Shown here piece after piece: positions 21 through 52,143 of a stretch of DNA of 64,000 bases (positions within the stretch are counted from its first letter, which is position 1; each line of letters begins with the position of its first letter). The stretch comes from Amphiscolops sp. MND2022 (taxonomy: Eukaryota). The translations under genes were made by a program, and so were the position numbers. The notes under the pieces are model-generated. The model was not told the origin of the DNA. It ran no database searches and was given only the letters and a program-made list of their open reading frames with translations. The DNA is taken from assembly GCA_964187785.1 (NCBI GenBank), contig OZ076409.1, forward strand, positions 6,016,001-6,080,000, read 5' to 3'.

Positions 21-638
21 TCACAAATTGTCGGTTTCTCTTTCTCGACAATTGTTACTGTGATAATCCTCTCTTAAGGGTTCAGCGTCAGATTCTTCGT
101 CAGAATGAATAGTCACATCTACATCAGATTCAGCTCGAAACAATGGTTTCGCAGGATGCTTAAGGTCTTTCATCTTAGACGCTCTTAGAGGATAATCGTT
201 GTTTTCAGAATCTGAGTTTTCATTATTAGATGCGTGAACTCTTATAGACGGGTCTATTCTGGATCCCGATGGTTGTGGTTCTTGTATTTCATTTATATCA
301 GATCTTGGGTTTGTTGCAATTGAAGTATTTTTGTTGCATTTTATCTCTTTCAGAATTGCTTCTAGTTTACTATCCATTTCTTCTCTTATTCTCTCTATCC
401 TTTCGGTATTTTTCTGCTCAACAATTTGTGTCCAAACTTGTATTTCATCACTAATTTGACTGGGTTCTCTTAGCTGGTTTTCCAAGTTTGGTTCACCTAA
501 ATTTTCTTGAACATTTAAGTTAGAATTAGTTAAAGTTATATTACCTGTTTCTGAAGAATCGATCCTAGTTTCGCTTGTTTCTCTCTCAGTAGATGGGGTT
601 GCTAGTCTCCTCGATCTTCGACTTCTTTTATTTCCCAT
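21..638 (-). other. LTR-borne copy of the gag 5' end (193 codons) running out into flanking DNA
   Basis: Identical to the N-terminus of ORF 13868-15559 up to ...REDYH, then diverges exactly at the LTR edge (59). Confidence 0.85.
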
Positions 639-1738
639 TTTGCTCAGTAGAAAACAAGTTATGTTTGCTGGGGAAGAATTTGAATTATGTTCTCAAATTG
701 AAAATCCAAACTTGAAAGAGAACAATGAAGGCAGTGGAAATGTGGGTTAGAGCTTATAGGAATTGGATCAACTGCACTCGGTGAAAGTTATTTCAATTGT
801 GTTTTTCTTACAAAATCCTTATTTTCAAAAATATAAAACAATGACAATCATTTTTGCGAGCATCATAGAATCCTGGAAAATCTAAAAATAGGATAACGTC
901 AGATTGCGTAATTCTATTTATATCATCTCCATAATGACGTAAATGCTTCTAATCATCCTTAAACCCTAGGAAAATGCTGCAAAATGATATATTGAACATC
1001 GCAAATACTATCTGATACAGTATAATTGCATGACATTCAAAAACTGCACATTTAGCTGAAAACCGCATAACTCCGCATATACGTCAGCCTCGAAACCGTA
1101 GGGTGACGTATAACACACGTGAACATTTTCCTCACGTTTGCTTAGTATTGTATATACAGCACAACACGATCCGCATAATATTTGCTAGAAACCGTATATT
1201 AACGTATAATCGTCACTGCAAGAAACGCATAGTGACGTATACTGCGAATGGCGAAATGGTATATTACCGCATACACTAATGATTCAAAACGTATGTTATC
1301 GCATATTCAAAAGCGTATAATGACGCATACTTGAAAATCATTTCACGCATAATGAAGTATATTCGTAAAGCTATTTCATGTATGATGACGCATCCTTATT
1401 AGTTGAAAAATGTCTAATGACACATAATCGCAATTCTAATTGTAGCATGATTACGCATAATGAAAGATCAAAAATCACAGATTTACCTTACTTATGTAGC
1501 TTTTAAGCACATGTTACTCTTATGAATGAATTTTAGATGAACTAGACGTCAATGAAAGGCTCAGAAAATATCTTAGAATGAAATTCATCAATGGAAATAC
1601 ACAAATAATTCCAAGACATTGTAGAATAACATCAAAAAGGAGTTTCGAGAGAGTTTAAAATGTTTTATTGTTAAGTCTTTCCAGATGTTCCTTTTCATTG
1701 CTGCACCACGGAACCATCGCATCTCGAGGGATGCGACA
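59..1738 (-). repeat. 3' LTR of element 1 (1680 bp)
   Basis: Colinear with 14980-16659 at constant offset 14921; only about six substitutions seen by eye, all around 990-1440. Confidence 0.96.
1060..1460. repeat. Degenerate ~32-33-bp CGCATA/CGTAT repeat array inside the LTR (second copy ~15980-16380)
   Basis: Recurring aaaccgcata / gacgtata / gacgcata units. Confidence 0.75.
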
Positions 1739-2723
1739 GTCCCGCATTTTTAAAAAGGAACAATGCTGCTTCAAATCCGTGGATGAATGCTCTAGATCTG
1801 ATCGCCCTTTCTTTGACCGTCTCGCCTTCATACTCTGTCGCAACCAGGTATTCACCTAGGGTCTCCAGTGCAATCTGATCGTAACATTTGCCGCAGAGTT
1901 CACAGTACCCCGCAACATTCGCCATCACTGTAGGAATCAGCCTGATGCTATTTCTCTCCTGTGCTGGGATCAATAGGGAATTGCTGCTATGAGTCGCATT
2001 GAACGGAAATCCTAGTTGGACTGTTGGTTGCATCGATTGTGCCAAATGTAGGGCACCATGGTCAATTCCACCAATGCTGAGCGGGAACAGCATCGGAGAG
2101 AGGTTGAATCCAGTGATATTTTCTTGTAATGACCTTTGCTGTGGGACCGTATCATTACGTACCCCTTGCTCCATCGGCTCACTTATCTGCTGTTGCGTGG
2201 GAACCGCCGATTCCTGTCTGTGGTTTGGTGGGTACCTCGGGGTCGGACGGGGAAGAATTCCCCTGTCACTTGAATTTGCTCTTGGTGTTGGGGGGACTCG
2301 AGCTGTGGGGCGGCCATAGTTATTCGTTGTCCTTTGAGGCCCGTTGCCCATAGTCCACGGGAAAAGATTCCCCTCCTCAAATTCACTATCAATGAATGAA
2401 CTCGGAGAGTCCGTTGTCTCATCTTGTGGGGCTCCGATTAGGTCCATTAGTTCTCTTTCCAACTGAGTCCCGGATGTGATTGTGGCAGCTTCATGTCCTG
2501 ACGATATCACTGTCTCAGGATACAGGGTGGCTGTTGCTGCTCCCATAAATGCCGACATTAAATTGCTCCCTGTTGTGTCTATTCGAAATCTTTCGTCGAG
2601 TTGGGCGACGTTTCCGGGTGCAATGGAGAATTCGCCTTCAGAACCGCTTGAGATGTCCACCACATCGGGAGATATGGGAGAATACAGCGAGTCTTCATCA
2701 ATATCAAATTGAAGGTTGTTCAT
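1695..2723 (-). CDS. Accessory sense ORF3 of element 1 (~342 aa): acidic SIM-like N-terminus, low-complexity middle, C-terminal CxxC domain; function unknown
   Basis: Open frame from ATG 2723; homologous to 50449-51240 (FDIDE/FDIEE; CELCGKCYDQI vs CMVCGRSVDEI; RSRAFIHG vs RREAYENG; CDG). Confidence 0.8.
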   Translation of the reverse strand: MNNLQFDIDEDSLYSPISPDVVDISSGSEGEFSIAPGNVAQLDERFRIDTTGSNLMSAFMGAATATLYPETVISSGHEAATITSGTQLERELMDLIGAPQDETTDSPSSFIDSEFEEGNLFPWTMGNGPQRTTNNYGRPTARVPPTPRANSSDRGILPRPTPRYPPNHRQESAVPTQQQISEPMEQGVRNDTVPQQRSLQENITGFNLSPMLFPLSIGGIDHGALHLAQSMQPTVQLGFPFNATHSSNSLLIPAQERNSIRLIPTVMANVAGYCELCGKCYDQIALETLGEYLVATEYEGETVKERAIRSRAFIHGFEAALFLFKNAGLSHPSRCDGSVVQQ

Positions 2724-3579
2724 TTTGATTAGCAAAAGATTATTTAGCGAGATAGATTTTCAAGAGTTTTACAAAGCAGCTGATTTATGAAATCGCAAAG
2801 ACCATATGGTGAATCTTCTTTTCAGTTTCTTCTGATTTTGACAAAACCCCGCTAAAATTCAGGTGTCATGGTTGCGTGGGCTTTGCAAAACCTTATATGG
2901 GACGGAGATGGCGGGTTCCCATATAATTGAGGGGTTAGGTTTTGATATCTTCCATAAATGTAAATAAACAAAATGATCATGGGTTCCTCTGCCTTATCTT
3001 TCATCGGCATCCCCCTTTTGATGTTTCTAGTTTCGTTTCAGTTACATTTAAATTTGATGTAAACAATTATCATCACCTAAGAATTCACCGGAATGGGTGA
3101 ACTAATTGTCAAATATAATCTTATCTAAAAGCATCAATGAAATTCATATCGGGATAAAAAAACATATTACATGGACATCTAAATGTTTTATCAAGTCTGA
3201 AATCACATAAGTACACCACTGTGTATCAATTGTCCCGCATTTGAAAATGCGCAAACTCCTGAAAGGTAGACCCAAGATGATTAGGTAGATTGTCAAGAGT
3301 CTGTTCATTTGTGCTAGCTCAGTGTATATTACGTCTGTATGTATTACTTCTTTTGATGTCATGTTTTCTCCTTTCTTCAAAATAGGTAAAGTTGTCTATT
3401 CGTCAATGCCAGAATCCGCATATTGCCGCGTGTTCACCATCTCTCAATGTAATCATCGACGTATGTTTGTTTGTTTTAAGTCAATACTACTCATTCAATA
3501 CCAATGATTACGTAACACACAATTTCTTCTCGCTTTCAATCTGTATGTTAGCACGTGCTCTTTTACTCTTAATTCCACA

Positions 3580-3975
3580 CAGCGCCGCATAAACTGCACT
3601 CGTCTTTCCTCATGTTGGCGCATGTTTGTGAGTCACAATTACGTATGCCGCCGCATATTACTCACTTGTAGATCTGCATATTTACTCATAATTCCAGTTG
3701 CAAATCCGCATACTGCTGTGTATTGTCAATCTGTAAACGCGCATAATCACTCATAATTACAATCGTGGATCCGCATGCTGTCGTATAATGTTCATCTGTA
3801 AATCCGCATAGTCACGCATAGTCACAATTGTGAATCCGCGTGATGCTGCATATTGTTCATCTGTAAATCCGCATAATCACGTATGATTATTATAGTAGAT
3901 CCGTATGTTGCTGCATGTTGAATACCAGTATTTCGCAGGTTACCGCATATACTAGTACAGTAATTCCGTAGGCTG
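3580..3975. repeat. Degenerate ~32/65-bp AATCCGCATA repeat array between the divergently oriented accessory genes
   Basis: Units such as tgttcatctgtaaatccgcatagtcacgcata recur several times. Confidence 0.8.
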
Positions 3976-4341
3976 TCGCCTATTTGATTGCTTTCACGCT
4001 ATTGCATTGTATCGCACTGTCAATTACGTAATCAGACACTCTGGCAGAAGTGACTGACACATTAATTGGCCAATCAGAATAGAGTATACCATATACTTTG
4101 GTACTAAAGTTGTGCTCATTTGCTCTTTGCCTTTTGTTCTGTTAAGCCACGCCTTTCAACTTTGTTATATTGAAGATTTGCATTACATTATATATTCTTT
4201 ACATTATTGTCCTTCAGTCAGTTTTACAGTCTACAGTATTCGTTCGTTCCTTCCTTTCCTAGGATTTCTTCCAGTCAGGTTCCCTTTTATTTATCTCCCC
4301 TTCACTCAACCGAGTTAACTGGTTTAGCATTCAGTTCATCA

Positions 4342-7300
4342 ATGGAGAACAGCAGGAGTAGGAAAGTTGAACGTGAGGACGTCTCAAGGATGCGGACCAG
4401 GTCTTGGGGGTACAAATCCCCGACAACTTCTTCACCCCGTAAGTTCGAATTTTCGTTTCTTAGTTTCGGTTAAGGATTTTTGTGAGTAAATAGCTGGCCA
4501 GGCTAAAAACTCGAGATTTGAAGATCAATGCATGCTTTTGATCATAATTTGGGTTTTGAAAGTTTCCACACTTCCGGTTTCACTTTCATTCGACTTCCGC
4601 TTCTATGCATTTTGTTCAACGGTTGAATGCGGATTTGTCAAACTGTTTAGTCACATTCGATTTATTGCTTTATTGTTGAATAAAGCTCATGTTTTAGTCG
4701 AACTTGGGGCTACAAACAAGTCACCTGCCCGGTCGCCTACAAAAATTTATACTCCTTTGCGAGTCGTCTCACCTAGTCATTCTGAACCCTCAGTTTACAG
4801 TATTCCTGCACCAACTGATCTCTCACTCAATCAAGCGAGGGAAAGTATAGAACAGCTCTTCAATGAATCGGGTGATCTAACGATTGACACCACTGCTGAT
4901 GAAGAAATGGAGTCTCATGCCTCACTTCTTAATCTCATGCAACTGGTTGAACAAGATCAGCCAACAGAGACGCCCTTAATTGCCAACGACGACTCCCCTA
5001 TTGATGTTGCTGAACAAGAAGCTAACGAAAACGACGCCCCCCTAATTGCCAGCACTTTCTCTCCTCGCTATAGTCAATTTTTGACTCCTGAGTTACCAGC
5101 TGCTGCTTCCCAGCCAGAAACACCTCCTGAGGCACAAGCTCAGACACTAGGAGGCGACCCTAAGCCAACACCACCGCGTCAAATTTTGAATGAGGAATTC
5201 GAGGAAATGCCAAGCAGTTCTGGACTTAACATCAATTTGACACAAAATGAAGTGGCTATGCTGAGGAACGTTTTGGATCGAATACCTCAGTCCCTTTTGG
5301 CTAGGGAGAGGAATGAGCCCAATCCTGAGTTCTCGGTTTCTGTGGTTGCTAATCCCCCTGTTCCCGTTTTCGGTCCTCCACTAATTCCTGGACCAGGAGA
5401 CACATCGGGCGAGAATCCACGCAGGGATACTACCGAATATGACGAGGAAAACGCCTCTAACCGGCCCTCCAAGCGTCCTAGACCTCGATACTATCTTACT
5501 GAGGCTATGTTCCGAAAACACCCTGTTCTGAAGTTTTTTGCGACAGGGCCTATAGACAGAGAGAAAACGCCTTACAAGTGGTGGTGCAGGGTTTGTCGAG
5601 TTGAATTGTCCCTCATGAGTCGCGGCCCACTTGAATTATTGTCTCATTACAAGACCGAAACCCACCTCTTGAAGGAGCACAGGATTAGAATGGAGACACC
5701 TGGTCTACCATTGTACGACAAAGAAGAGGTAGAATTACAAGGAATTGCTCTGCAGGAGGCGAAGCGGATAGCCAAAGATATGCATCCTATTTCTCCACAA
5801 CGTGACCCCTGTCGATTACTTGTTGGACAGGACAAACTTCCTGAGATTAGGAGCGACTCTGCGCCAGTTGACATTGTGTTATCTCAGATCAGAGTTCTTG
5901 AGCTTGGACTAAAACACGGGGGCCATGTTGCAAGCTTAATAGCGATCCATGACGAAATATTACAACACTCATCTGGAGGAAGTTCAATGCAAACTCTCAA
6001 CTGGAGCGATTCACGAATCTTTGTTAGTATACATTACTTTTATCATAAAATAACACCACTGACTCCATAAGATAAACCAATGATGCAAAAACTTCTGGAT
6101 TCCGATCAGTACCGAATGGCACTCATTCGTTAGTTTCTGTTTCAGGGGATGTTGGTGTATATGTTTCGTGAGCTCGTCAATTATTGCGTTACTCACATTG
6201 GCTCATCTCAGGGTTACTCCCTTTCTCTACACCGAACCCCAACAAGGACTCTGCTTTTTATTAGTTTCTGGTCTGGTAACGTTTACCAACGGGTTTGCAT
6301 TGGAGCTGGGCCAAGAGGAGTGCTAATCCCAAGGAGACTCCTCGATTTATTGTGCTCCTTCATCACTCATTTCGAGACACCTCCAACTTGTGTGGCTCTT
6401 ATCGACATGTGTGAGAGACTCAATGTGTGTCTAACTGCGACATTACCAGGCAATCTACGGCCTAATGCAGTCAACAGCTTTGGTCCAACTGAATTTGAGA
6501 GGTGTTTGTCACTTCCGACTGCCAAGATTATAGAGAGGCACGACTTTCGGACCATCATTGATTTTTTACTGACAAAATTACGAACTGCACTTGATCGCGA
6601 CTGGTTGCAGTCCTTGCCGTTACTTCATAAGGTAAAGTCTTTCTTGTCTCTTTTGTCGATTGGCCGGTATTTTGTTATTTTCACAACATAATAAAACCTT
6701 TTCACAGGCAGTACTCAACCTCGAGTTTACCCTAGTCGAAGCGTCTTCCCTGATCGAGTGTTTCTCCTCCAACTGGGACAGAATCAGAGATCATCTAACC
6801 CAAGTGTCCCGATTGCCAGCATATCGATTCCATATAAAAGAAGTTTGTATTCATCGTCATTAGATATTCTATTTGTTAGACTTTTGTTTCCAATTTCCAT
6901 TTCTGTTCTAGCCCAGTGCACTCGATGAATGTTTTCGCCTGGATACCGTGTATCTCGCTCGATTGTTTATCATCCGTTGCATCATCGACAATTGTTAGTA
7001 ATGTCCCATTATTTCACTTCTTTAGTGTCGTTTCAGTATTTCGTCCATTCTCCTTTTATATCCAGTTTCGAAAGGGATATTGTCTAAAAAGTTTGCTGGA
7101 AAGCTCTGGTTCCTGCTTATAACACCGAATTTCCCTGTATTTCTTCCTTTTATAGGTCGTAAGAGATATTTCCACGTGTTTTTGATTATTTCCGCATAAT
7201 CATGCATATACGGTTCATCACATTCCGCCTGTTGACGTATATATGTGGTATTACTGCACGTGCATTAACACGCAGTTTGGATTTGTAATCTGCGTAACAA

Positions 7301-8777
7301 CGTATTTACGCCATTAGGAAATCCGCATAACAACGTATTAACGTCATTAGGAAATCAGCATAGTACCGCATTGTCCATATCCAACTTCCGCATGTTGACG
7401 TAGTGCTTCATTCTTGATTCTGCATGATGACGTATTATTGAGAATCATTTTCTGCATAATAACGCATTACGTCCTGCTGAATTCCGCATGTTAGCGTATA
7501 TTCTTGATTCGATTTCTGTGTAACGACGTATATCCGTCACTTGGAGTTCTGCATTATTGCGTGTCTTTTGGTTTTAACTTCTGCATAATGACTTGTACTC
7601 TCTATCACCAGCTCCGTATAGGAGTGTATTTTTCATTCAAAAGATGATTCATGCTTATGTGGTATGTTTTGTTTCAGACAATTCCGCGTTTTCCGATTTG
7701 CAAGGTCATCTTGATCAAGGATTCAGGATCTTTAATCAATTTTCTGTATTCATATACAGCCAGTTACAGCTGATATTGCCTGATAGCTTCCTCGGGGATA
7801 TTTCCGAATGGGATACCTACTTGAAAATTGACTTGGCGCAAGCAGATCTTCCCTTCAAAGCCCCTGCAGATTTCGTCCTGAACCCAGATTATCATCATTT
7901 GGTTACATCCAGCCGTTTACCGCGTCCTAGCAAATTCGTGGAGCAGTCAATGGCTTTCTGCAAATCTTTTTGTGGTGTGTTATTGTCCCACAGTATTCTG
8001 AAATCTGCTCTAATTCGTGGTTTATCCTGTTTCGACAGCGCCGTCATGTTAGACGGGCCTGAACGACATTACGTTGCTGCCATAGAGGATCTTACAAGTT
8101 ACTTTGTGTCTTCCAGTTTGATTACGCCTGGAGACAAGACCAAGTGTGTGAGTCAGTATCGGTCGTTGGTGGCCAAGCTTCGTACTGTCAACGACATCCC
8201 AAGAAGTAATTGGGTGCTGTTCCTTGGGGCTCACTACGAAATGCAGAGTCGTCCCGAACTTTCCAAAGTGTTTCGATATGCTAGTTTGTGTTTGCCACCA
8301 ACCGTTACAATTCCTACCTCTTTCAAGATTTCGGTCCCGGATCTTGCATCTGACCATGAGGCTTTCCAGTCTATTGTCAACAGTTTACAGCTCTCGTATG
8401 TCACCGTACCCAACGTTTCCAGTCTTTATCAGGATCCTCGATCTGTATGTCGTATCTTTCGTTTGTTGGGCCGGGGGCGAGAGTTGCTCAGTGACAAAAA
8501 GTTCTCTGTTTGGACCTTTTCACGTGGGAATGTGTCTAAACGGCTTGCCTTACGTGAAAAGATGGAGGCTGCGTACAAGAAGACAGTTTTGGATGGTGAA
8601 GGGTTGCCCATCTTTCTAGATGTATCTTCGCCAAGTGGTAGTGCTCCTTCTAGTAGCAACAGTTCTCCGCTTCCTGGGCCGTCTCTGGGACTCGTTTCTG
8701 TAAGTGTCTCTCGTTGTGTTGAGGCAGGGGTTAACAACGACAAGACCAAGAAGAAAACGAAGGCTAAGAAGTCTTGA
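4342..8777 (+). CDS. Spliced antisense gene of element 1: BED-like zinc finger plus degenerate hAT-transposase-like body, ~1074 aa. Exons 4342-4438, 4698-6022, 6146-6631, 6708-6842, 6912-6993, 7678-8777
   Basis: All five introns are GT-AG and phase-compatible (1,0,0,0,1), total 3225 nt open; WCRVC-x16-H-x5-H motif; homologous exon structure in element 2. Confidence 0.82.
7190..7600. repeat. Degenerate ~33-bp TCCGCATA..ACGTAT repeat array within intron 5 of the antisense gene
   Basis: e.g. aatccgcataacaacgtattaacgtcattagga and neighbouring variants. Confidence 0.78.
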
Positions 8778-8975
8778 TCAAATGTGTTTGCTCCGCAACT
8801 TTTAGTATTATTTGAATTTCTCTTTGCTGATTTGAAACTGTATCATCTCATGTTTTGTTTGTATTTATCTTTGTAGTTATGTTATTCGCTACCGCAGAGG
8901 TACTGTTTGGTAAAAGTTCTATAATACTCAATTCCCAGGAAGGAAGTTAGAAACAAAATTTGTGAAGGTTTGTCT

Positions 8976-11900
8976 TTAGTATCTGTAGGTGTCAGAGTAG
9001 TTTGGGTTAGGGTTGGGACGTAGGTTATATTTTTCACCACGAGTATTTATGGGTTCTTCTTGCAATGGAGGATTTTGTGAATTTTCTGGGGTTTTTTGGG
9101 AGTTTTCTGGGGTAATTTGAATGTCGTTCTCTGATGAATTTCCAATATCTTTTTGGGTTTTTGGGGTGTTTCTATCATCTTGACCATTTTGTTGTGACTT
9201 TTCATTTTCGTGATTTTCATTCGGTTCAGTGGTCTGTTCCACTGGGCTCCCCCCACTATTTTTTGAAGTTCCAGGGGAGGGAGGGTGGTAATCATCAGGT
9301 ATTTGGATCGGGGTGTATTCCGTGTCCTCAGTGTTTTGGGAACACTCGGAAATACCTTCATCAAAAGGGTTTGATCCAAAATTCGTGTTCCATGATTGGG
9401 CATATAGGTCGTCATTTGCTATAGGCATTTGATCATCTTTTTGCCAGTCGGTTTCACGGACAAAAATGTCTGCTAATGGGGCCTGCGGGGTAAACTTTCG
9501 CAGACGAATCCTGTGTAATAATTGTGTTTTGTTTGTCCCAAGTCTCCTGACAATATAATTGTTGTTAGGGAGTACCTTTTCGACTTTATAGGGACCACAC
9601 CATCTGAATTCTCTGAAGGGTATTTTCGTTGCTTGAGTGTCAGCCTTTGGGTTAAGAATATAGCAGTAGTCCGTCGTTTCGAGTGGAGCTGCTTTTGCTT
9701 TCCTATCGTAGTACGCCTTATACTTGAGATAAGATTGCATGATATTCTTCTTTGTCTGGTCTAGCAGAATTTTCATCCTTTTATGGATTTCTTCAGCTAT
9801 GTCGGTTTGAGGTTGATATCTCGGATTAGGGTTGTATCCAAGTTTATAGTCTAAAATATTGTGTGGTATCCTGCCATGGAAAACTCGTGAAGGTTCACAA
9901 CCGAGTGATGCATGGTATGTGGTGTTGTGATTGAGGATTGCCAAAGGGAGATATTTATGCCAGTTGTTCCTGAATTCGCCTGTTGCGGCTTTCAGGTGTG
10001 TTTTTACTGATGCATGTGTCCTCTCGAGGAGTCCTATTGTTTGTGCATGCTTCATTGTTGCATGTTTTAGTTCGATTCCTAGCACTGCGGCGATCTCATG
10101 CGTTACTTGTGCATTGAATTGGGTTCCTAAGTCCGTTATTATTGTTGTTGGTAGGTATGTGTGTTTGCATAGTATATCCATTATGACTCTTGCTACTGCT
10201 GTTGCGTTGATGCGAGTTACAGGATAAGCAAACAAGTATCTCGAGAAGACATCTATTGCAGTGATAATATGGTCATAGCCTCCGCTTGGGGGGAGGTTTG
10301 GCAAAATGTCCATTTGCAGTATGTCTTCTGGACCTAGATCCCATTCTGGACAATTAAGGAGTTCTGTCCTCAGGAGATCGTTATTGATGCGTTTGGTTTG
10401 GATGCAAATTTGACAATTACTGACCCATTTCTTGATGTATTTTGCCATACAAGGGTAGTAATATTTTTGTCTTGCTTCTTGTATCATTTTTGTGATACCT
10501 GGGTGGTTTGAATTATGTCCATGAAGGGCTTGAAGGAACTCGTCTAGAAGTTGAATTGGAAGAAGGATTTGGTAATGAGATATTGTTCCAGTATCCGTAT
10601 AATATTTCCTGGTGAGTACTTCTTGTTTGATTTCTATTCTTGTGATATTTTGTAGGTAATGGTGGTATCTGTAGTCTGATGCCAATTCATTTTCATCGAA
10701 GGAATCGCCTTCGATTTTGGCTCGTAAGTTTCTGAGAACTATATCGTTATTTTGTTCCAGGCGTATCTTTGCATTGTCTCTGAAGTATCCTGATGATATT
10801 GAAATTAATCCTGATGTAGGTTTGTGGAATTGTTGTAGTTCAGAGACAGCATTTTCTGGTTCATTGTGGGATTCGGTTTGAGCCTGATTCCGTACATTTT
10901 GCTTTTCTTCCCAGAGTTGATTTTCATCAATGTCATCGTCTGGGAGGATGTAAATTTGCTCTTCTTCGACTATGCCTGAGGATTGGATATTCACTTCAAT
11001 TGCTTTTGTGTGGATATCGTTGCGGATAGTCATTTCGAGCTTTTCTGTTGGGTTTACCTCCGTTCTTGATAGAAAGTCTGCTGCTGTGTTCATTGAACCA
11101 GCAACATGGGCGATTACAAAATTGTACTGCAATACATAATCGCAAGCGTTCCAGAGTGCTGGAGGGATCATTTTTGTTTGAAAAAATCTTGTTACCGAGC
11201 GATTGTCTGTGAACACGATTACTGGGAAGGTAGTACCCCACATAAGGTGTCCAAATTCGACAAACACGAAATATATGGAAAGAAATTCTTTCGCATATAT
11301 TGACATTTTGGTTTGGGTTGGATTAAACGTTTTGGATCCAAACGCTATGGGTGCATATGTTTTACGTTTGGATTGTAGTTTTTGGTTCGGGTCGTCTTCT
11401 ATCATGATTGCATATCCAGCAGCTGTGAAGCTCGCGTCGGACATGACTATGAGTTGTTTATGCTTCAGCGGTTGTTTCAGGGCCAGTTGGCAGGAATTTT
11501 CGAGTAGTTTGTTTAAGTTTGTGAATTCTTCGACCAAATTTGTTGGTACATAAAACTTGGATGTTTCCTTGAGGAGTTTGAAAAACGGGGTCAACCGTTC
11601 TGAAAGGCGTGGAATGTAGTTTCGGTAATAGTTCAAAAACCCGATATACCTTTGCAACGCCTTTTTCGATTTAGGGAAACGGAGCTTGGCGAGAAAATCT
11701 TTCACTTTGTCGGCTTGTGGGGCGACTCCATCAGGTGTGATTGTGCGGCCCAGGAAGTCGACTTGTTTAACTCCGAAATGGCATTTCGACATGGAGAGTT
11801 TCAATCCTGCATTGCGTATGCATTGGAAGACTGTTCGTATGTTGGTACATAATTGTTTTGTATCGTTTGCTGCTATGCCGATGTCATCGACATATTGAGC

Positions 11901-13877
11901 GCATTGATCTGCTTTAATTGCCTTGTCCAGGTAGTCTCTCATGAAGCTTGAGAATGCAGAAAGTGATCTGCTGAGACCCTGGGCTAGTCGTCTATAGGCG
12001 AATGTTCGGCTTGCAAAGTTAAATGCAAGCATCTGGATGGATTGGTAGTCTGCCATCTGTAGGCAGTGGTAAGCCTGGGAGCAATCCAATTTGCAGAAGA
12101 GTTTTTTCCCTGCCATGTGTTGGGCTGCATCCGATAAGGTGCTTACCGGGTGGTTGTTATTGACATAATCTTCAGTAATCAAGTTGTTAATTTTTCGTAG
12201 ATCAACAAGAAGTCTGAGGCGCCCGTTGGGTTTGCGCTGTGCAAAGATTGGGCTTGCATATTTAGAGAAGGGTAAGGTTGTAATGATACCATATTTGTGT
12301 AGTAGTGCGAGTTCTACAGTGATATCATCTTTGAGGTTTATTGGGGTCGGCAGACTTTGGCTGTAAGCAGGTCTGTCGTCATTGGGTGTGAGTTTAACTT
12401 TGAATTCCCGATTTATCCCAATGTCAAAACGATGTCTTGCAAAAATATCGTGGAACTCAATGAGAATTTCCTCAATTTCCTTTCGTTCATCTGGGGTGAG
12501 TGTTGTATCAGACCAATCAAAGTGTGAGAGAAATTCTGTTCTGGAAGTTTCACTATCGTGTGGGTTTAGTTTCTCAAGTTCTTTAAGTTCAAGGAGTTCG
12601 TTATATATACGTTGCTGGATTGGGGTATATGTTGTTGGATCTCCTGGTTCTTCTGGGGTTGGGAACCAGTATGTTTCCTGTTCTGGATTTGTTTGTGGAA
12701 CTTTTAGGAGTTCATTTATGTAGACTTCCGTTGTCTCTTCATGTTGTATCATGAAGGATAGTAACGTTGGGTCCACTGGCTGAATATGTTTAATTTGTTC
12801 TGGGGTAAGTATCTTGAAGTCCGCTAGATGGGTGTCAAGAGTAATGGTGTAAGGTAGTTCCGAGAAGTTGATGATTTGGTATCCTATGGCGTTGTTGTTA
12901 ACTGTACTTAACGATGCCGTTATAAAGATACTGTCGTGATTTTCAAATTGTTGCGATGGGGTGACTATTCCAGTAGCATTATGGTCCATCAAATGTGGCA
13001 TTTTGCTTGCAATGGCGAGTGTTTCGCCCGGTCGTAAAGTGTATGTATTCTCTGCAAATAGTGGTGTTGTTGGTCGAATTGATGTTTGGGTGTCTGGTTT
13101 AAGCTGCATTGAAAGATATGGAAAAGTTAAGATGCCTTGCGTGACATCGAAAATTGCATTATTTCGTCGTAGGAAGCATAACCCTATTAGTGGGTTTGGT
13201 AGGTTTTTCATTATAATGAAATTTTCTTTTAACATGAAGTCAGCCACCTCGAATTCGAGGAGTACAGTGCCGATTGGGACTTCTAATTGTCCATTCGCCA
13301 CCATGATTTGGAAGTTTGGTGGGGGACCGGTTTCTTTGATTGCTTCATTTGCAAGCAACTTAATTTTGTTGAGGTCTTGTTCGGAGATTGCACTCGTGAG
13401 GGCACCAGTGTCGATAAGACCGTCGAGTGTTAGCTTTTCGAAGTCCATCGGTATGTAATACATGTGGCGTTTTCGCTTCAGTGTTAATGATGTTGAGATT
13501 GGAAGGTATGATACATTTCTTTCGTGGTCGAATTGTATATGTTCAGAGAGGTCCTCGTTCAGAAGAGGTGGTTTTTGGTCATTGCAAGAAGTTTTAATTG
13601 AAACATAATTTTTTGGTGAGTGTGGGGGTTCTGGGGTTAAGTCGGTTTTATGGCTAGTTGGCTGTTTTGTAAAGTAGTTGTCTGGTGCATCAGACAGAAG
13701 GTCATATATGTCTTCAGAGAGAGTTTCTTGTGTTGAATGTTGAAGATTTTGTGCTGGTAAGCCAGTTGTGGGTGTTATGGTTTTTGTTGGTTTTGGGCTC
13801 GGCGTATGCTGCCAGTCATCTGCAGAGTTTATTTTTTGTGGTGATTTTATGTAAAGGCGTGGCGATTCTAGTTTAAA
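8976..13877 (-). CDS. pol: Pol polyprotein (aspartic protease, RT, RNase H, integrase), intact, probably expressed by -1 frameshift
   Basis: LIDTGA protease; QYVDD RT; MSDAS RNase H; HHCC and DDE integrase; GPY motif; TTTAAAC slippery site at the gag stop. Confidence 0.96.
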   Translation of the reverse strand, partial: FKLESPRLYIKSPQKINSADDWQHTPSPKPTKTITPTTGLPAQNLQHSTQETLSEDIYDLLSDAPDNYFTKQPTSHKTDLTPEPPHSPKNYVSIKTSCNDQKPPLLNEDLSEHIQFDHERNVSYLPISTSLTLKRKRHMYYIPMDFEKLTLDGLIDTGALTSAISEQDLNKIKLLANEAIKETGPPPNFQIMVANGQLEVPIGTVLLEFEVADFMLKENFIIMKNLPNPLIGLCFLRRNNAIFDVTQGILTFPYLSMQLKPDTQTSIRPTTPLFAENTYTLRPGETLAIASKMPHLMDHNATGIVTPSQQFENHDSIFITASLSTVNNNAIGYQIINFSELPYTITLDTHLADFKILTPEQIKHIQPVDPTLLSFMIQHEETTEVYINELLKVPQTNPEQETYWFPTPEEPGDPTTYTPIQQRIYNELLELKELEKLNPHDSETSRTEFLSHFDWSDTTLTPDERKEIEEILIEFHDIFARHRFDIGINREFKVKLTPNDDRPAYSQSLPTPINLKDDITVELALLHKYGIITTLPFSKYASPIFAQRKPNGRLRLLVDLRKINNLITEDYVNNNHPVSTLSDAAQHMAGKKLFCKLDCSQAYHCLQMADYQSIQMLAFNFASRTFAYRRLAQGLSRSLSAFSSFMRDYLDKAIKADQCAQYVDDIGIAANDTKQLCTNIRTVFQCIRNAGLKLSMSKCHFGVKQVDFLGRTITPDGVAPQADKVKDFLAKLRFPKSKKALQRYIGFLNYYRNYIPRLSERLTPFFKLLKETSKFYVPTNLVEEFTNLNKLLENSCQLALKQPLKHKQLIVMSDASFTAAGYAIMIEDDPNQKLQSKRKTYAPIAFGSKTFNPTQTKMSIYAKEFLSIYFVFVEFGHLMWGTTFPVIVFTDNRSVTRFFQTKMIPPALWNACDYVLQYNFVIAHVAGSMNTAADFLSRTEVNPTEKLEMTIRNDIHTKAIEVNIQSSGIVEEEQIYILPDDDIDENQLWEEKQNVRNQAQTESHNEPENAVSELQQFHKPTSGLISISSGYFRDNAKIRLEQNNDIVLRNLRAKIEGDSFDENELASDYRYHHYLQNITRIEIKQEVLTRKYYTDTGTISHYQILLPIQLLDEFLQALHGHNSNHPGITKMIQEARQKYYYPCMAKYIKKWVSNCQICIQTKRINNDLLRTELLNCPEWDLGPEDILQMDILPNLPPSGGYDHIITAIDVFSRYLFAYPVTRINATAVARVIMDILCKHTYLPTTIITDLGTQFNAQVTHEIAAVLGIELKHATMKHAQTIGLLERTHASVKTHLKAATGEFRNNWHKYLPLAILNHNTTYHASLGCEPSRVFHGRIPHNILDYKLGYNPNPRYQPQTDIAEEIHKRMKILLDQTKKNIMQSYLKYKAYYDRKAKAAPLETTDYCYILNPKADTQATKIPFREFRWCGPYKVEKVLPNNNYIVRRLGTNKTQLLHRIRLRKFTPQAPLADIFVRETDWQKDDQMPIANDDLYAQSWNTNFGSNPFDEGISECSQNTEDTEYTPIQIPDDYHPPSPGTSKNSGGSPVEQTTEPNENHENEKSQQNGQDDRNTPKTQKDIGNSSENDIQITPENSQKTPENSQNPPLQEEPINTRGEKYNLRPNPNPNYSDTYRY

Positions 13878-15559
13878 TCCTTCGAAGAGGATTGTTGTGG
13901 ACGTTCTGTTTTTGGTTTTATTGGTTTTCGCGCTTGTTTGTATGCTTCGATGATCTTTTGTTGGGCTTCCGTAAGATTCCACTTCGGTGGTCGATTTTCC
14001 ATGTTGGCTCCGAAGTAGCAATTTTCTTCTTCATGACCTGGTGTATTGCAATTCTCACATTTTGCTGCATCCAGGTCTTCTTCGAGTTTTCTTCGTTTTG
14101 CCAGTTTGGGACAATCGGCCATCATGTGGCCTGCCTCTTTGCAATAACGGCATTGGTTGTTTTTGAGCGTTTTGTCAGGCACTGTTTTTGGCGTTTGTTT
14201 TTTGGTTTTTTCGTTCGGTTTTTTGTTAGATTTTTCAGTACTTTGTTCTTTTTTAGTAACGGTCATCTGAGTTTTGACGAGGGGTTCATCAGCCTCTAAA
14301 CCGTTGAGTTCCATCTCTCTTTCAAGATGTTTGACTATTTGGTCGTAATTGCCATTTTCAAGGTATGCTTGATTTATGGACTTTTTGAGATGGGGAGGCA
14401 TTTTAGCATAGAGTAAGTTCTCTATCATTTGATGAGCGTTGTCCCCAAATGCTTTTTCGGCACTTTCTTGGAGTTCTTCCAGGAAATCCGGAAGTTTTTG
14501 ATTCTCTGGGTCAAATGAGAGTCTGTTAAACCGGTGCTTGGCCGATGCACTAGACTCCGGTTTGACATACTTTCTACGAAAAACCTTTAGGATGTCTTCT
14601 AAGGTCGTAGTTGGAGTTCTTTGTATGTTTTTGAATGTTTTGAGAGCCAAACCCCTCAGGTGTGCGTGAAAATGGTTAATTTTCATTTCTTCTGTTAGGT
14701 TTGGCTGCATTCGCAGTGTTGTATGAAATAAGTCTTCGAAATATTCGAATTTTTCATTTTTCTCGTTTTTGCCATTGAATGTGAGTGTGTTTTTGGGATG
14801 AAATAAGGATTGTGGAGAGTTTTTGTTTGCCAGTTTTTCTATTGCTAATGCAATCTGGTTAACTGGGTCGACTTGTTTTGTTGTCGAATTTGACAAATTT
14901 TGGTCTGCGCGGGATCCTATTGTATCGTTGAAGTTTTGTGAGCTTTGTCTATAGAGTTGTCGGTTGGCTCCTGTCACCATGTGATAATCCTCTCTTAAGG
15001 GTTCAGCGTCAGATTCTTCGTCAGAATGAATAGTCACATCTACATCAGATTCAGCTCGAAACAATGGTTTCGCAGGATGCTTAAGGTCTTTCATCTTAGA
15101 CGCTCTTAGAGGATAATCGTTGTTTTCAGAATCTGAGTTTTCATTATTAGATGCGTGAACTCTTATAGACGGGTCTATTCTGGATCCCGATGGTTGTGGT
15201 TCTTGTATTTCATTTATATCAGATCTTGGGTTTGTTGCAATTGAAGTATTTTTGTTGCATTTTATCTCTTTCAGAATTGCTTCTAGTTTACTATCCATTT
15301 CTTCTCTTATTCTCTCTATCCTTTCGGTATTTTTCTGCTCAACAATTTGTGTCCAAACTTGTATTTCATCACTAATTTGACTGGGTTCTCTTAGCTGGTT
15401 TTCCAAGTTTGGTTCACCTAAATTTTCTTGAACATTTAAGTTAGAATTAGTTAAAGTTATATTACCTGTTTCTGAAGAATCGATCCTAGTTTCGCTTGTT
15501 TCTCTCTCAGTAGATGGGGTTGCTAGTCTCCTCGATCTTCGACTTCTTTTATTTCCCAT
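13868..15559 (-). CDS. gag: Gag (563 aa) with two CCHC zinc knuckles; starts inside the 5' LTR
   Basis: CRYCKEAGHMMADC and CENCNTPGHEEENC; capsid-like core homologous to element 2 gag. Confidence 0.93.
   Translation of the reverse strand: MGNKRSRRSRRLATPSTERETSETRIDSSETGNITLTNSNLNVQENLGEPNLENQLREPSQISDEIQVWTQIVEQKNTERIERIREEMDSKLEAILKEIKCNKNTSIATNPRSDINEIQEPQPSGSRIDPSIRVHASNNENSDSENNDYPLRASKMKDLKHPAKPLFRAESDVDVTIHSDEESDAEPLREDYHMVTGANRQLYRQSSQNFNDTIGSRADQNLSNSTTKQVDPVNQIALAIEKLANKNSPQSLFHPKNTLTFNGKNEKNEKFEYFEDLFHTTLRMQPNLTEEMKINHFHAHLRGLALKTFKNIQRTPTTTLEDILKVFRRKYVKPESSASAKHRFNRLSFDPENQKLPDFLEELQESAEKAFGDNAHQMIENLLYAKMPPHLKKSINQAYLENGNYDQIVKHLEREMELNGLEADEPLVKTQMTVTKKEQSTEKSNKKPNEKTKKQTPKTVPDKTLKNNQCRYCKEAGHMMADCPKLAKRRKLEEDLDAAKCENCNTPGHEEENCYFGANMENRPPKWNLTEAQQKIIEAYKQARKPIKPKTERPQQSSSKDLN
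14968..14979 (-). promoter_or_regulatory. Primer-binding site TGGTGACAGGAG (tRNA-Leu-like, identity tentative)
   Basis: Begins with TGG immediately after the LTR's terminal CA; the same 12-mer follows the LTR of element 2. Confidence 0.88.
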
Positions 15560-16659
15560 TTTGCTCAGTAGAAAACAAGTTATGTTTGCTGGGGAAGAAT
15601 TTGAATTATGTTCTCAAATTGAAAATCCAAACTTGAAAGAGAACAATGAAGGCAGTGGAAATGTGGGTTAGAGCTTATAGGAATTGGATCAACTGCACTC
15701 GGTGAAAGTTATTTCAATTGTGTTTTTCTTACAAAATCCTTATTTTCAAAAATATAAAACAATGACAATCATTTTTGCGAGCATCATAGAATCCTGGAAA
15801 ATCTAAAAATAGGATAACGTCAGATTGCGTAATTCTATTTATATCATCTCCATAATGACGTAAATGCTTCTAATCATCCTTAAACCCTAGGAAAATGCTG
15901 CAAAATGATATATTAAACATCGCAAATACTATCTGATACAATATAATTGCATGACATTCAAAAACTGCACATTTAGCTGAAAACCGCCTAACTCCGCATA
16001 TACGTCAGCCTCGAAACCGTAGGGTGACGTATAACACACGTGAACATTTGCCTCACGTTTGCTTAGTATTGTATATACAGCACAACACGATCCGCATAAT
16101 ATTTGCTAGAAACCGTATATTAACGTATAATCGTCACTGCAAGAAACGCATAGTGACGTATACTGCGAATGGCGAAATGGTATATTACCGCATACACTAA
16201 TGATTCAAAACGTATGTTATCGCATATTCAAAAGCGTATAATGACGCATACTTGAAAATCATTTCACGCATAATGAAGTATATTCGTAAAGCTATTTCAT
16301 GTATGATGACGCATCCTTATTAGTTGAAAAATGTCTAATGACGCATAATCGCACTTCTAATTGTAGCATGATTACGCATAATGAAAGATCAAAAATCACA
16401 GATTTACCTTACTTATGTAGCTTTTAAGCACATGTTACTCTTATGAATGAATTTTAGATGAACTAGACGTCAATGAAAGGCTCAGAAAATATCTTAGAAT
16501 GAAATTCATCAATGGAAATACACAAATAATTCCAAGACATTGTAGAATAACATCAAAAAGGAGTTTCGAGAGAGTTTAAAATGTTTTATTGTTAAGTCTT
16601 TCCAGATGTTCCTTTTCATTGCTGCACCACGGAACCATCGCATCTCGAGGGATGCGACA
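14980..16659 (-). repeat. 5' LTR of element 1 (1680 bp)
   Basis: Direct repeat of 59-1738, followed by the PBS on the - strand. Confidence 0.96.
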
Positions 16660-17299: not shown

Positions 17300-19270
17300 A
17301 TTAAATGATTTTAAAAAAGTAATTTATTTTCAGAAGGCAGTGTATTTACAGTCTTGTAACATTTTTTAAAGTAGGAGAGAGGTATCATTCTGTTTTGCAA
17401 ATACAATACAGCTAATCTATCGAAAGAGATATTCACTCCAACACTTTTTTCCATATTCGAAATTGTCTTTTTCGCTTACATATTTGCTTAAGAAGTTTTG
17501 TTTGATATTTTTTTTTGGTTGTTATGTAGGTACATTTCCCAATTTTTAGCTTGTCAGGTAACTCGTTCCATATGGGTACTGTATTACTGAATAAGCTTTT
17601 CTTAAGAGAGTCAGTTTTGCATTGGATGTTGAAGTAGACTTTCTTGGTTCGTTTGTGAGATCTTATGTCACCGGTAGAAAATTTCTTTTTCCCTGCAAAT
17701 GCCGGAAGTTTTTTGTTTTTCCATTTCCAGTAGAAGTTGGCATTTTTGCTTTGGAAAAGATATCGGACTGGGAAAATATAATGCTGATTTTTGAGATCTG
17801 AGGAATGATCATATTTTAAACGGTTAAAACATGCTTTTATTCCCCAATTTAACTGTTTTTCAACGTGGTAAAAAGGTTGTCTGAAAGTCCGCTTAGTGAG
17901 ATAGCCGAGTAGTGCAAGTGGCTCACCACTGGGGCAATTAAAAGCAATTTCCTGGTTTTTCGGGGGAAAATGTCTCGTACAGAGTACAGACTTGTTATTC
18001 CCAGTGCCATCTTGCTGAGGATATTTTTGATCTCGATTTGGTAGTTTAGGTTTTGATCTAGGTAAACACCGAGATATTTCACATTAGAAATTGCCGAAAT
18101 AACTTGGTTTTGAACTTTGAGTTTTAGTTTTTTCATCGAATAGTTTTTTGCTTCTCTACAAAACATTATAAATTCAGACTTGCCAGCATTGATGGTCAAC
18201 CGGTGACTTTCAAAAAAGAATAATAATTTCTCCACAATTTGTTCAAGTGAGGCTGTTGCTTTGTGGATATTACTAACTGACTTGAGCACCATGGTATCAT
18301 CTGCGTATTGCAAAAGTTTGCAGTAATTTTGAACCTCATGTTGCATATCATTAACGTAGATGTTAATAAGTAATGGACCGAGTACGGTTCCTTGAGGAAC
18401 ACCTTGGTATAGATTTATCCAATCTGAGTGACAGTTGGGAAGGGTTATATTTTGATATCTTTCGGGAAGAAAACTTCGTATCATCGAAATTGACATTGGG
18501 TCGAAATTATATTGCTTTAATTTGTTTAACAAGATTTCATGCGATATGGAATCGAAAGCTTTTGATAAATCCAAGAAAGCTGCGGCTACATTTTCGCCAT
18601 CGTCTAAGTTTTTTCGGATAGTTTCAGTAGCATAAAGTAATGCATCGGTTGTTGAAAAACGTGCTCGAAAACCAAACAGTGTTTCGCCTAATAACTGATT
18701 TTCCTCCAGATTTTCATTCATTTGTTTTCTTAGAACTTTTTCAAAAATTTTTGATATGGCTGGGGTTATTGAGATGGGTCGATAATTGCATGGGTCTTCT
18801 TCTTCCCTTTTTGTAAATAGGAGTTACCAAAGCGTGTTTCAAATGATTCGGAAACTTTTCTTCTATGATGAAGGCATTGATTAGGTAGCAAAAGGGCTCA
18901 GCAATGACGTTTCTACAGTCTTTCAAAACCCATGCAGGAATACTACACGGTCCTATAAGTTTATTTTTATTGAGACATAATAACTGTTTTCTACAGTCAT
19001 AAAGACTGATGGGTTGAAGCGAAAATACTTTTTGTGCATTGTTTCGGGTACTGTTGGCGGATCGTAAGGCCTAGCAGTCCCCATATAGTCCCCTAATTTT
19101 GAGAACCGAAAATTTAGTAGGTTTGCAATTTTCTTTTGATCTATTACGTGGTCGCCGAAACAGTTCTTTAGGCTTGTTATTTCTGTTTTTGTTCGCTGTG
19201 CATTCCTGGATTCATTTATAAATTTCCAGTTGTCCTTTCAGTAGTCAGGTTGTTGAAAGTTGCTATTTGA
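17300..19270 (-). pseudogene. 5'-truncated, frameshifted non-LTR retrotransposon (LINE, CR1/L2-like) RT fragment
   Basis: FLDLSKAFD, GVPQGTVLGP, QYADDT, VKYLGV motifs in ORF 17849-18721; upstream part lies in another frame; boundaries approximate. Confidence 0.88.
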
Positions 19271-28247: not shown

Positions 28248-28485
28248 AAAGCGACAATTCGTCCCCGATTCCAAAAAAATGACAATTCGTCCCCAATTCC
28301 AAAAAGTGACAATTCGTCCCCAATTCCAAAAAGTGACAATTCGTCCCCAATTGCAAAAAGCGACAATTCGTCCCCAATTGCAAAAAGGGACAATTCGTCC
28401 CCAATTCCAAAAAGTGACAATTCGTCCCCAATTCCAAAAAGTGACAATTCGTCCCCAATTGCAAAAAAGCGACAATTCCTCCCCA
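28248..28485. repeat. 27-bp minisatellite (~8.5 copies), probably one arm of a foldback element
   Basis: Unit gacaattcgtccccaattccaaaaagt; inverted units at 28678-28726 and ~29190-29205. Confidence 0.9.
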
Positions 28486-48801: not shown

Positions 48802-50537
48802 TGTCGTAAGCACGAGGGATCGTGCTCGTGAATCCGTCTTTGGGGTGGTCATTGGCCTGCTTACTCTTAGAATTATTCCTAGGTTCTAAGTTTTGCAGCA
48901 CTTCGGAATATCCTTCTGGTCTCTCGGCCGGAACGTTCCATCTCCCTTTGGTCAACTGTCCAGACCCGGCCATAACTGCGTTTTGATTTGAGGCAAAATT
49001 TGACTACTGATCGCTTCATTTATTGCCCTTTGAATCTGAACACTGACGCTGTTCATCATTTCGTCCATTCCTCGAGACATACGGGAATTTAACTCGCTCG
49101 ACAGTCTATTGATCTCAACACTTGAACTCTCCCTGATTGAATTTTGGCCCAATTCGGTATTTGGGCTAGGTCCATTATTTCCTGGGTTTGGGAACTCATT
49201 CTCATTCTCATTTTCAAGTTCGTCTTCAAATAAGCTTTCTGGTCTACCGGCCTGATTACTATACATACTTTCATTTCTTTCATTTCTATCAAAGTGGTTT
49301 CCTCCGAGCATAATATCCAAATTCTCAATGTCTGATAGCATCTCTGCTTCTCTAGATTTCCTTGCTTTCTTCTGTTTCCTAGTAGTAGGCATTTAGAAAG
49401 AAAGTCCGAGGTTAATATTGAATTAGTTCGGAAAACTGGTAATATCAATGAACTGAACGTTATGGAAAGAAAGCAAATTGTGTCCCCTCAGAAGGGGGGT
49501 ATATGTATATATACCTCCTGAGGTGTGACACTCACATTTTCCACATATTATTGAAATGTTTACATACTCTAAAGGATCGTGAGATTTTACGAGGATTGGA
49601 AAATAGCTATTGCATCAAAGCGATTCAGGAATTTAGGGTCGGAAGAATTCCTGCGGAATGCACTCAATTACATACTCATGATGGCTTCAAAGTACGGGGG
49701 ACGGTTTAGTCCGCATTCCCGTAACAATTAACATCAAGGCAAATACATGTTCAGACACTTCAAAGTAATATTTGTGTCAACAGGTATGTGAGATACTTAA
49801 GGCACGTGCCTGCACACGCAGGCTAATTCATCAGGTAGCAACTCTAATTATATGCACTAATAAAAGGTGAGCGCGGCCCAATTCGGTCATTTGACAAAGG
49901 TACCATCCAATTAAAGTGACCGGTTTAGTCCGCCGGACTAGTATTTAGAGTTTTATGACTGGTGGTCACAACTACATCAATTGGGTTTAAATAGCCTCAT
50001 TAGCGCCTTCTAAATACAAATATAATCCATGACTTTAAATAACACGCATACTCAAATTAAACAATTACAAAAGCTAATAGTTGGAATGGCCTAATCCGGC
50101 CATTTGCCTTTGGTTCGCTTACAAAATAAAGTATAGCGTCAAGTGGCCGTATACGGCCAAAAAAATATGACAGTATAATGCACAGCAGGATAGAGCGTTC
50201 TGATTGGCTAATGAAATGAGCTCAAGTGACGTCTCCGGAATTGGAGTTTCGTTCACTTGAACTCGTTTCCTTTAAGCTTTACACTTGCCTTTATTACATT
50301 ACGTCACTGCTAAACAATTCATCATATAAACATAATCATCACCGTTTGAATTCTAACACGGGTATTAATCAGACTAATATTCAATCCGAATACATAATGA
50401 ATGTAATAAAACAACAGTGAGTTTTACTGAAAGTTTTGAATAATTCTCCTAAAATGTGGGTAGAGTGCCCGGTACGGCTTCTTGTTCGTTAGTAGTCGTT
50501 GTGATTCGTGTCCCATCGCAAGCGGCAGCCTGCGACA
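48802..50537 (-). repeat. 3' LTR of element 2 (~1736 bp; right boundary inferred)
   Basis: Left edge TGTCGTAAGC matches 63001; right edge ...ccatcgca-N10-tgcgaca placed by homology with the element 1 LTR edge. Confidence 0.75.
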
Positions 50538-51240: not shown

Positions 51241-52143
51241 TATTATCTTTTTTGCAATTTTGTTGATTCGCAAAGCGACTTGTTGCTTGCAAGGTTCAAA
51301 GTTGAATAAATTTGTCAAAATTTTCTTCAGGCCAATTCAGGCTATTTTCCCGGAGTCCCATTTCGGCGGGAGAGACCATGGCCAATCGCCCTGATCCGTC
51401 GTAAACTTTCTAGAATGGAATTTCTCAGCGGCTTATTTATCCTTTGAAATTCGGAATGGAACCCCCCTTTCTCACTCTCTCAAGTGAGTATGCAAAGAGG
51501 TGTTAAGTTGACAACAACAAATATTTCCACTTCGAGTGGGTAATCAACATCAAGCTTGATAGCAATTAACGGCACTTGTCGGATGAAACTCACTGAAATG
51601 GCTTCAGCCAATCGAATTTGAGTTTCGATAGATTTGGAAAATGAATAATAAAGATGGCAGAAAATAATAATTTTGAATAACTGAATGAAATGGCGAAAAT
51701 CTAACTAAGATAACTAGGAAAACTGAACAAAACGGCAACATAAATTGGGGTAAACGGCCATAATCGGCCACTAATTGTAACAAGGTTGTAAATAGCGAGA
51801 TACGTCCTGTACATTTCGCTGGCAGACTCCGTGTACAGATTTAAATATGTAGATAATCAAATAATATTAGTCTGGTAAATCTTCAGCCACGAACTCCAAC
51901 TTTTCATTCTCAATAATTACATTAACCAATCCCTCTGACATCTGTATTTGTTAAATTCATACAATTCATACTTGTATTCCTGCTGCTACATACATCCATA
52001 TCCGTTCCCGGCTCCGTTATTGTCTCGTCTTTCTACGAGGACATCTTGTACTTCCCTTTCTCTCAGCCGTACCCGGCCTGACTACACTACTCCTATCAGC
52101 TGGGTCCAAATAGTTACCTTGGTGACAGCGGCTCAAAAGGAAC

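Follow-up and report, generated by a model that had tools for sequence, protein, structure and literature searches.

Why would one short motif recur, at a nearly constant step, in the LTRs, between the accessory genes and inside an intron of a single retrotransposon, and which protein reads it? An earlier note on this locus had regarded such arrays as binding platforms for the element's own zinc-finger protein. We address the question in the window, that is, the whole 64-kb stretch of DNA analysed here, and in one related public contig. Our best reading, which we regard as reasonably probable from the sequence comparisons below, is a family-specific, element-encoded regulator together with its cognate sites. 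LTR elements are abundant in an acoel genome, according to the available part of the report (PMC9911081).

The retrotransposon and its relatives

Element 1 (59-16659, minus strand) is an intact Ty3/gypsy LTR retrotransposon in which paired LTRs, TG...CA termini and a 5-bp target-site duplication (GTTAC) are all present, as is the order of gag followed by protease, reverse transcriptase (RT), RNase H and integrase. The 3' LTR (59-1738, minus strand) is 1680 bp long and shows six differences from the 5' LTR (14980-16659, minus strand), an identity of 99.6%. Both pol (8976-14030, minus strand; protease, RT, RNase H and integrase) and gag (13868-15613, minus strand) are open, and the gag frame starts within the 5' LTR. 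Two divergent accessory genes are situated between pol and the 3' LTR, gene A in the sense and gene B in the antisense direction. Gene B (4342-8777, plus strand), antisense to gag-pol, is predicted to contain six exons (4342-4438, 4698-6022, 6146-6631, 6708-6842, 6912-6993, and 7678-8777, all on the plus strand) that encode 1074 aa with no internal stop and are separated by GT-AG introns, in a model for which only sequence and homology were used. No sequencing run was listed for 1750-8900, a result that carries no information on expression.

Element 2 (48802 to the window end at 64000, minus strand) belongs to a related family with the same layout and has no CGYAT arrays. The two elements are 75% identical in RT-RNase H and 22% in gene B, and the gene B of element 2 has three introns at positions matching those of element 1, the last of which measures 71 bp versus 684 bp in element 1 (intron 5). 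The third member, L002, is an independent public metagenome contig with 70% identity across 117 residues of the RT-RNase H query; it carries pol, a spliced antisense gene B homologue (match probabilities 98 and 97), gene A, and an LTR-like stretch. RT scans of metagenome contigs gave two loci, only L002 extending to the accessory region, and RT scans of viral and genome contigs gave nothing, as did locus scans with the finger alignment across metagenome, viral, and genome contigs. The junction of gag, LTR, and primer-binding site has the same sequence in all three elements, and the gag frame (13868-15613 in element 1; 9535-10350 in L002) begins in the LTR and stays open across the LTR end and the primer-binding site. 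The pol of element 2 (56719-63589) is split over two ORFs, and its LTR-encoded gag leader lies apart from the remaining gag; either a damaged copy or assembly errors would account for these breaks. In L002 (8250-10351), a primer-binding site and a second gag follow the presumed 3' LTR, which we read as a tandem or chimeric arrangement with one common LTR.

Gene A (1695-2759, minus strand) is a sense accessory ORF whose stop codon lies within the 3' LTR. Copies are also found in element 2 (50449-51336) and L002 (7518-8252), with an acidic N-terminus and a CxxCG, near the C-terminus in element 1, in 3/3. What we take to be a SUMO-interacting pattern matches in two of the three elements, narrowly fails in element 1, and is found in none of the four gag/pol controls; gene A is a possible effector against SUMO-dependent silencing. 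The arrays might instead be bound by gene A, through its CxxCG plus helix, or by the integrase, rather than by gene B, and the occurrence of gene A in all three elements and its likewise fast divergence (27% over 67 aa) would fit such a role. However, no recognised DNA-binding domain was found in gene A, and the conservation of pol far exceeds that of the motif, which leaves this alternative only a slim chance.

CCAAT-box-like sites occur upstream of gene B in element 1 (4068) and in non-coding parts of element 2 (50209 and 51606). Elsewhere in the window, dispersed MITE-like repeat families lie in both orientations between 22200 and 45800, many with a AAAGGGTCCCCC core and some containing GGCC pairs that resemble the loose motif of element 2 described below. 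A 27-bp minisatellite (28248-28485, 8.7 copies, 93% matches), a non-LTR-type reverse transcriptase fragment (17433-18823), and an exon of pyrroline-5-carboxylate reductase (42008-42427) were also identified; no tRNA genes were found in the 64-kb window.

Three arrays of a paired half-site

The half-site reads CGYAT, most often with A or G as the next base; its spacings alternate between 10 and 22/23 bp, forming a 32/33-bp unit and a 65-bp dimer. Element 1 contains three degenerate arrays of the CGYAT pair with a 32/33-bp period. Array 1a (1064-1459, plus strand), with 13 in-register units, is located in the 3' LTR, 279-674 bp from the LTR start on the element's sense strand and presumably in U3; array 1b (15985-16380, plus strand) is its copy in the 5' LTR, and the two count as one array because the LTRs are 99.6% identical. 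Array 2 (3576-3982, plus strand), situated between the divergent accessory genes, consists of 13 consecutive units with a 65-bp higher-order repeat, and a lone paired site (3417-3432, plus strand) lies upstream of it. Array 3 (7193-7630, plus strand), with 14 in-register units, is within intron 5 of gene B, which spans 6994-7677 under the six-exon model.

The earlier note had placed arrays in both LTRs, between the accessory genes, and in intron 5 of the antisense gene, with a period of about 33 bp, and in these respects its description is borne out: the arrays lie about where it put them and the unit-to-unit step is 32 or 33 bp, with a single 24-bp step (TRF periods of 65, 33, 32, and 24 bp). 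Its half-site distance of about 11 bp needs correction, as the distance measured between half-site starts is 10 bp (15 exact pairs, and 40 when up to one mismatch is allowed) and an 11-bp spacing in element 1 falls under the listing threshold of 8. That the motif fills the non-coding DNA is overstated, since it occupies three blocks of about 400 bp and is lacking from the remaining introns and the bulk of the LTR. No plus-strand CGYAT occurs in introns 1-4, at 8778-8975, at 4041-4341, or in the LTR at 59-1039, the stretch 2726-3379 has one, and a pair is absent from every one of these stretches.

With at most one mismatch allowed per pair, the window contains 40 plus-strand pairs, 10 in each LTR, 9 in the intergenic part (including 3417), 9 in intron 5, and 2 in coding DNA of element 1, which places 38/40 in its non-coding clusters. 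No plus-strand pair was found in the 32,140 bp of host DNA in the window, a small sample. The single minus-strand pair lies inside element 2, and with this one exception the CGYAT pair is restricted to element 1 within the 64-kb window. A host cluster at 32600-33010 (32.6-33.0 kb) contains 10 single CGYAT (CGTAT) sites with no 10-bp pairing; with 10 half-sites and zero pairs, it was rejected as an instance of the same motif.

Apparent constraint on the half-sites

At 3580-3975, 14 CGYAT half-sites and eight pairs compare with shuffle means of 3.2 and 0.3, and 0/1000 dinucleotide shuffles matched either count, which is also true of the LTR and intron arrays. CGYAT had been chosen from the same DNA, and therefore two independent tests were added. 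A matrix trained on two arrays recovered 7, 14, and 7 units in the held-out third, counting units that scored higher than the fifth-ranked of the 94,400 outside positions. When element 1 was scanned for its highest-scoring same-word pair without a motif being supplied, the spacing returned was 10, and 0/200 shuffles scored as high.

Across all in-register units (13, 13, and 14, good and bad ones included, with four positions interpolated), identity amounts to 0.69, 0.75, and 0.70 in the half-site columns and to 0.33, 0.47, and 0.39 in the outer linkers, a column conservation that is partly circular because the unit register was set on the half-sites. Column profiles of different arrays are correlated with one another (rho 0.77, 0.49, and 0.47). 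Compared between arrays, the 3' linkers are identical at 0.29-0.33 versus a chance level of 0.27 and the half-sites at 0.74-0.80, and the two internal arrays also have a common short 5' flank (0.59). Four of the six LTR differences fall in the array and two of these hit half-sites, which counts against strong short-term constraint. A best lattice of 10.8 bp was rejected; it only restates the 32.5-bp period and is out of phase with 10.5.

Arrays of this kind could also be neutral, minisatellite-like expansions produced by slippage or by template switching of the reverse transcriptase, comparable to those in the pol-LTR region of plant Retand, where about half of the elements have such arrays with unknown function, as stated in the available part of the source (PMC11963269). 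Clear local duplications (the 65-bp dimer at 76-77%, a 33-bp pair at 88%) and the 684 bp of intron 5, against 71 bp in element 2, are what such a process would leave. However, half-sites and period are common to three separate arrays whereas the linkers mostly are not, the 32/33 step is kept for 12-13 steps in each array, and the dyads of element 2 and part of those of L002 are dispersed rather than tandem. We consider neutral expansion very improbable.

Within the window, neither the CpG ratios nor the CG-to-TG pattern supports a link between the CG-containing motifs and methylation. The observed/expected CpG ratio is 1.04 in host DNA and 0.70-0.84 in element coding DNA. The CG of the half-site is replaced by TG in 14 and by CA in 4 of 80 cases; this CG-to-TG excess was not taken for a sign of methylation or readout, since it matches the strand bias of the element itself, which is also seen at the four-fold sites of pol (A 299, G 84).

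Gene B, a BED-like finger and a hAT-like C-terminus

Gene B encodes a BED-like zinc finger of the Cx2C...Hx5H (C2H2) type (5585-5665, plus strand) and a part that resembles the helical insertion and C-terminal region of hAT transposases (7680-8430, plus strand), and finger first, hAT-like tail last is the hAT order. Judged by its sequence relatives, the gene B family is large and open-reading: 279 relatives of the finger exon were found with E values of 0.001 or lower, and exons 6 and 3 match 99 and 67 clusters, all from ENA assemblies and without Pfam domains, the exon-6 cluster of element 1 itself holding 14 member sequences. In a 40-row finger alignment, made from 38 of the 150 listed matches plus two window sequences, both cysteines are kept in 40/40 rows and both histidines in 39/40. 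A further alignment, of 20 sequences, groups families in which the finger is near-invariant. Matches to zf-BED were obtained for 3/40 finger relatives, only one above the cut-off, and the finger of element 1 had none in Pfam. The folded finger has no significant structural match; TUT4 came first in both searches (Z 4.8), and the BED domain of ZBED1 was Foldseek rank 2 (E 0.82).

In the case of exon 6, 23 of the 30 Atlas matches belong to clusters of which the leading one has Dimer_Tnp_hAT on 60% of its members (0.92), and 141 features are shared in the match to the hAT clusters. Its best structural match among 48,161 chains is the Hermes transposase, residues 368-609 (Z 5.0, rmsd 4.4, 178 aligned), tied in Z with unrelated helical bundles that align at most 87 residues at an rmsd of 5 or less. 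A hAT match for exon 6 was absent from Foldseek, Pfam, and PDB sequence-profile searches; longer exon-6 relatives (640-2000 aa) were not found, which is weak evidence, and profile and Atlas searches with exon 3, made with regard to the RNase H-like core that a hAT transposase has between finger and insertion domain, were blank. Pfam assigned no family, and thus no VANC domain, to the three gene B ORFs, and TRP28 (PF04195) had no match in these ORFs or in 140 aligned members.

An ERxFS-like motif, which we take to be catalytic, was found in 0/36 anchored members (of 56), and the two candidate catalytic Asp columns, at what we presume to be DDE positions, read Q29/E6/H3 and G24/D15/N5 of 44. Because the motif is absent and the Asp columns are unconserved, catalysis looks lost, and the catalytic residues of gene B have apparently disappeared. 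No terminal inverted repeats were seen around the gene. The evidence from the BED-like finger and the hAT-like C-terminus is weak but concordant, and we judge a hAT origin of gene B to be likely.

The nearest structural neighbours of the finger include RNA-processing fingers (TUT4, TUT1, and spliceosomal ones, none significant) and all sites lie on one strand, as would suit a motif that acts in RNA, the finger binding repeats of the genomic RNA for export or packaging. Rev and the Cer1 CERV protein are said to work in this way. Nevertheless, no array folds better than its shuffles (z -0.82, -1.84, and -1.16), the 5' U3 would lie outside the genomic RNA by the standard LTR layout, and the self-complementary cores of element 2 and L002 are of the kind expected where a protein reads double-stranded DNA. 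We hold an action in RNA to be highly improbable.

Related families carry different dyads

The motif-free search returned other pairs in the relatives. The best pair of L002 is ACGT at 11 bp, with nine occurrences in non-coding DNA (0/200 shuffles) and clusters at 2322-2407, adjoining pol, and at 8395-8902, in the presumed LTR. The best pair of element 2 is GGCC at 10 bp, with three pairs (2/200 shuffles), and dispersed GGCC-N6-GGCC-like pairs are located at 49699, 49875, 49918, 50088, 50145, 51756, and 52065. When the search was applied to host DNA, 4/12 tiles beat all 40 shuffles, at spacings of 6, 6, 7, and 9, and the sole tile with a best pair at 10 bp was not significant; in a separate shuffle test, 5/7 host tiles also beat all of their own shuffles. 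The geometry of the dyads differs, being direct in element 1 (0.63 vs 0.40) and leaning inverted in L002 (0.48 vs 0.32).

Counted in element 1, element 2, L002, and host DNA, respectively, the CGYAT pair occurs 40, 1, 3, and 0 times, the ACGT pair 2, 0, 13, and 3 times, and the GGCC pair 0, 4, 0, and 1 times in exact and 2, 11, 0, and 11 times in loose form; for the CGYAT and ACGT pairs the counts are nearly diagonal. The cases of element 1 and L002 are strong. That of element 2 is weak, with four exact sites and a loose form equally frequent in host repeats (11 vs 11). The finger exons of L002 and element 2 are 29% and 19% identical to that of element 1. Relatives that keep the layout and have diverged fingers show, at corresponding places, other dyads with a spacing of 10-11 bp, which suggests, for the three elements whose DNA context is known, that each family has its own switch.

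The main rival is that the arrays are ordinary homotypic enhancers for host factors, each family having captured a different factor while gene B does something else. Repeated host-factor sites are common in LTRs, and two of the three arrays are at promoter positions. CACGTG, which we take to be a host E-box, accounts for 7/20 L002 half-sites, and some units of element 1 contain what we presume to be bZIP (7/40) or paired-domain (6/40) cores. Yet none of the seven host cores that we assumed covers more than 7/40 units, and the pair is absent from the 32 kb of host DNA, small as this sample is. Moreover, one array lies deep in an intron and L002 has one adjoining pol, and three unrelated host factors would each require pairing at 10-11 bp. 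Host enhancers are unlikely in our view, though less so than the other alternatives.

Comparison with known regulators

The cited sources were available in part, and the comparisons below follow those parts. VANC binds 8-9-bp motifs that, in its own family, are multiplied as tandem repeats within introns and between genes (PMC5735166). As in VANC/VANDAL of Arabidopsis, which is Mutator-like, an element encodes an accessory protein, and motifs that differ between families are tandemly repeated in non-coding parts, terminal ones included (PMC5735166); family-specific non-coding arrays are found here in three elements, one of them weak. However, the carrier is an LTR retrotransposon instead of a Mutator-like DNA transposon, gene B is without a VANC domain by Pfam, and the sites are spaced pairs on a fixed period. 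TnpA of Spm, which is transposase-derived and needs dense motif clusters, represents regulators that have lost their catalytic residues and act with dense, family-specific clusters (bioRxiv 10.64898/2026.08.24.746577). Those regulators reside in DNA transposons of their own superfamily or in host genes, whereas here a hAT-like gene is found inside a class I element, and the whole words "retrotransposon" and "LTR" have 0 occurrences in the available text of that preprint. In the case of Hermes, BED domains bind paired subterminal repeats cooperatively (PMC10368747), and a putative N-terminal BED-type finger and short, paired, repeated sites are also present here, but around gene B no terminal inverted repeats were seen, the protein has apparently lost its catalytic residues, and the sites lie in the LTRs and in the interior of the element.

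Retand combines antisense ORFs with family-specific tandem arrays of unknown function (PMC11963269), and a review describes retrotransposon antisense ORFs without similarity to other transposons (PMC7264820). Plant Retand/Tat elements resemble element 1 in being Ty3/gypsy, with a long pol-LTR region, a conserved antisense ORF predicted to bind DNA, and family-specific arrays (PMC11963269, PMC7264820). Their TRP28 domain, of unknown origin and reported only in flowering plants in the parts available, is absent from gene B of element 1; in contrast, the ORF of element 1 has five introns and appears to descend from hAT, and a single motif connects the arrays that element 1 has in its LTR, between genes, and in an intron. 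Foamy-virus Tas is a 3'-encoded DNA-binding protein that acts on the LTR and on an internal promoter (PMC4929722), and the action that we propose would likewise take place at both; Tas is, however, a sense-strand retroviral gene, and the likeness implies no homology. If the model holds, element 1 would work like VANC/TnpA or like Tas, but it belongs to neither; its carrier type sets it apart from VANC/VANDAL, and the absence of TRP28 sets it apart from Retand. What antisense ORFs and internal tandem arrays do in LTR retrotransposons, and where they came from, are named as open questions in the literature (PMC7264820, PMC11963269). In the literature, covered mostly at title and abstract level and with supplements and repeat databases outside the scope, we found no account of a hAT-derived antisense gene in an LTR retrotransposon; nor, with most subscription papers outside the scope, did we find one of a motif common to LTR, intergenic, and intronic arrays.

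A proposed self-regulatory system

The placement of the arrays, their constraint, and the co-variation of dyad and finger are the grounds on which binding is predicted. We favour, with some confidence, the view that the arrays are clustered candidate binding sites for the product of gene B, a putative derivative of a hAT transposase that would have kept its BED-like finger and lost catalysis. A hAT element would have entered the stretch from pol to the 3' LTR in antisense orientation, and its introns could survive there because the genomic RNA is the opposite strand. An oligomer of the gene B protein may read two half-sites about one helical turn apart, and local tandem duplication would have multiplied these sites at the LTR promoter, at the internal divergent promoter, and in the intron, so that clusters at three places could give cooperative, family-specific occupancy. 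Binding would keep the family transcribed, through activation or by opposing silencing, with gene A as a possible partner. Finger and motif would drift together, and each family would come to regulate itself alone.

More tentatively, and at somewhat less than even odds in our estimation, a large Ty3/gypsy lineage, probably one of invertebrate animals, may have captured a hAT transposase, retained it as an antisense gene that is spliced, and converted it into an anti-silencing or activating factor private to each family, with paired sites co-evolving with its finger. In that case gene A, which has SUMO-interacting-like motifs, may be the effector.

Sequence-specific self-regulators with co-evolving sites are documented for plant DNA transposons and complex retroviruses. 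For these questions element 1 supplies candidate answers, with an inserted hAT gene as the origin and the binding of its own arrays as the function of an antisense ORF. The three finger-motif pairs are suited to a clean cross-specificity experiment, and the at least 99 related clusters would permit a test of co-evolution. If true, the proposal would mean that an arms-race system resembling VANC exists outside plants, assembled by a class I element from class II parts, and would provide dozens of natural finger-motif pairs.
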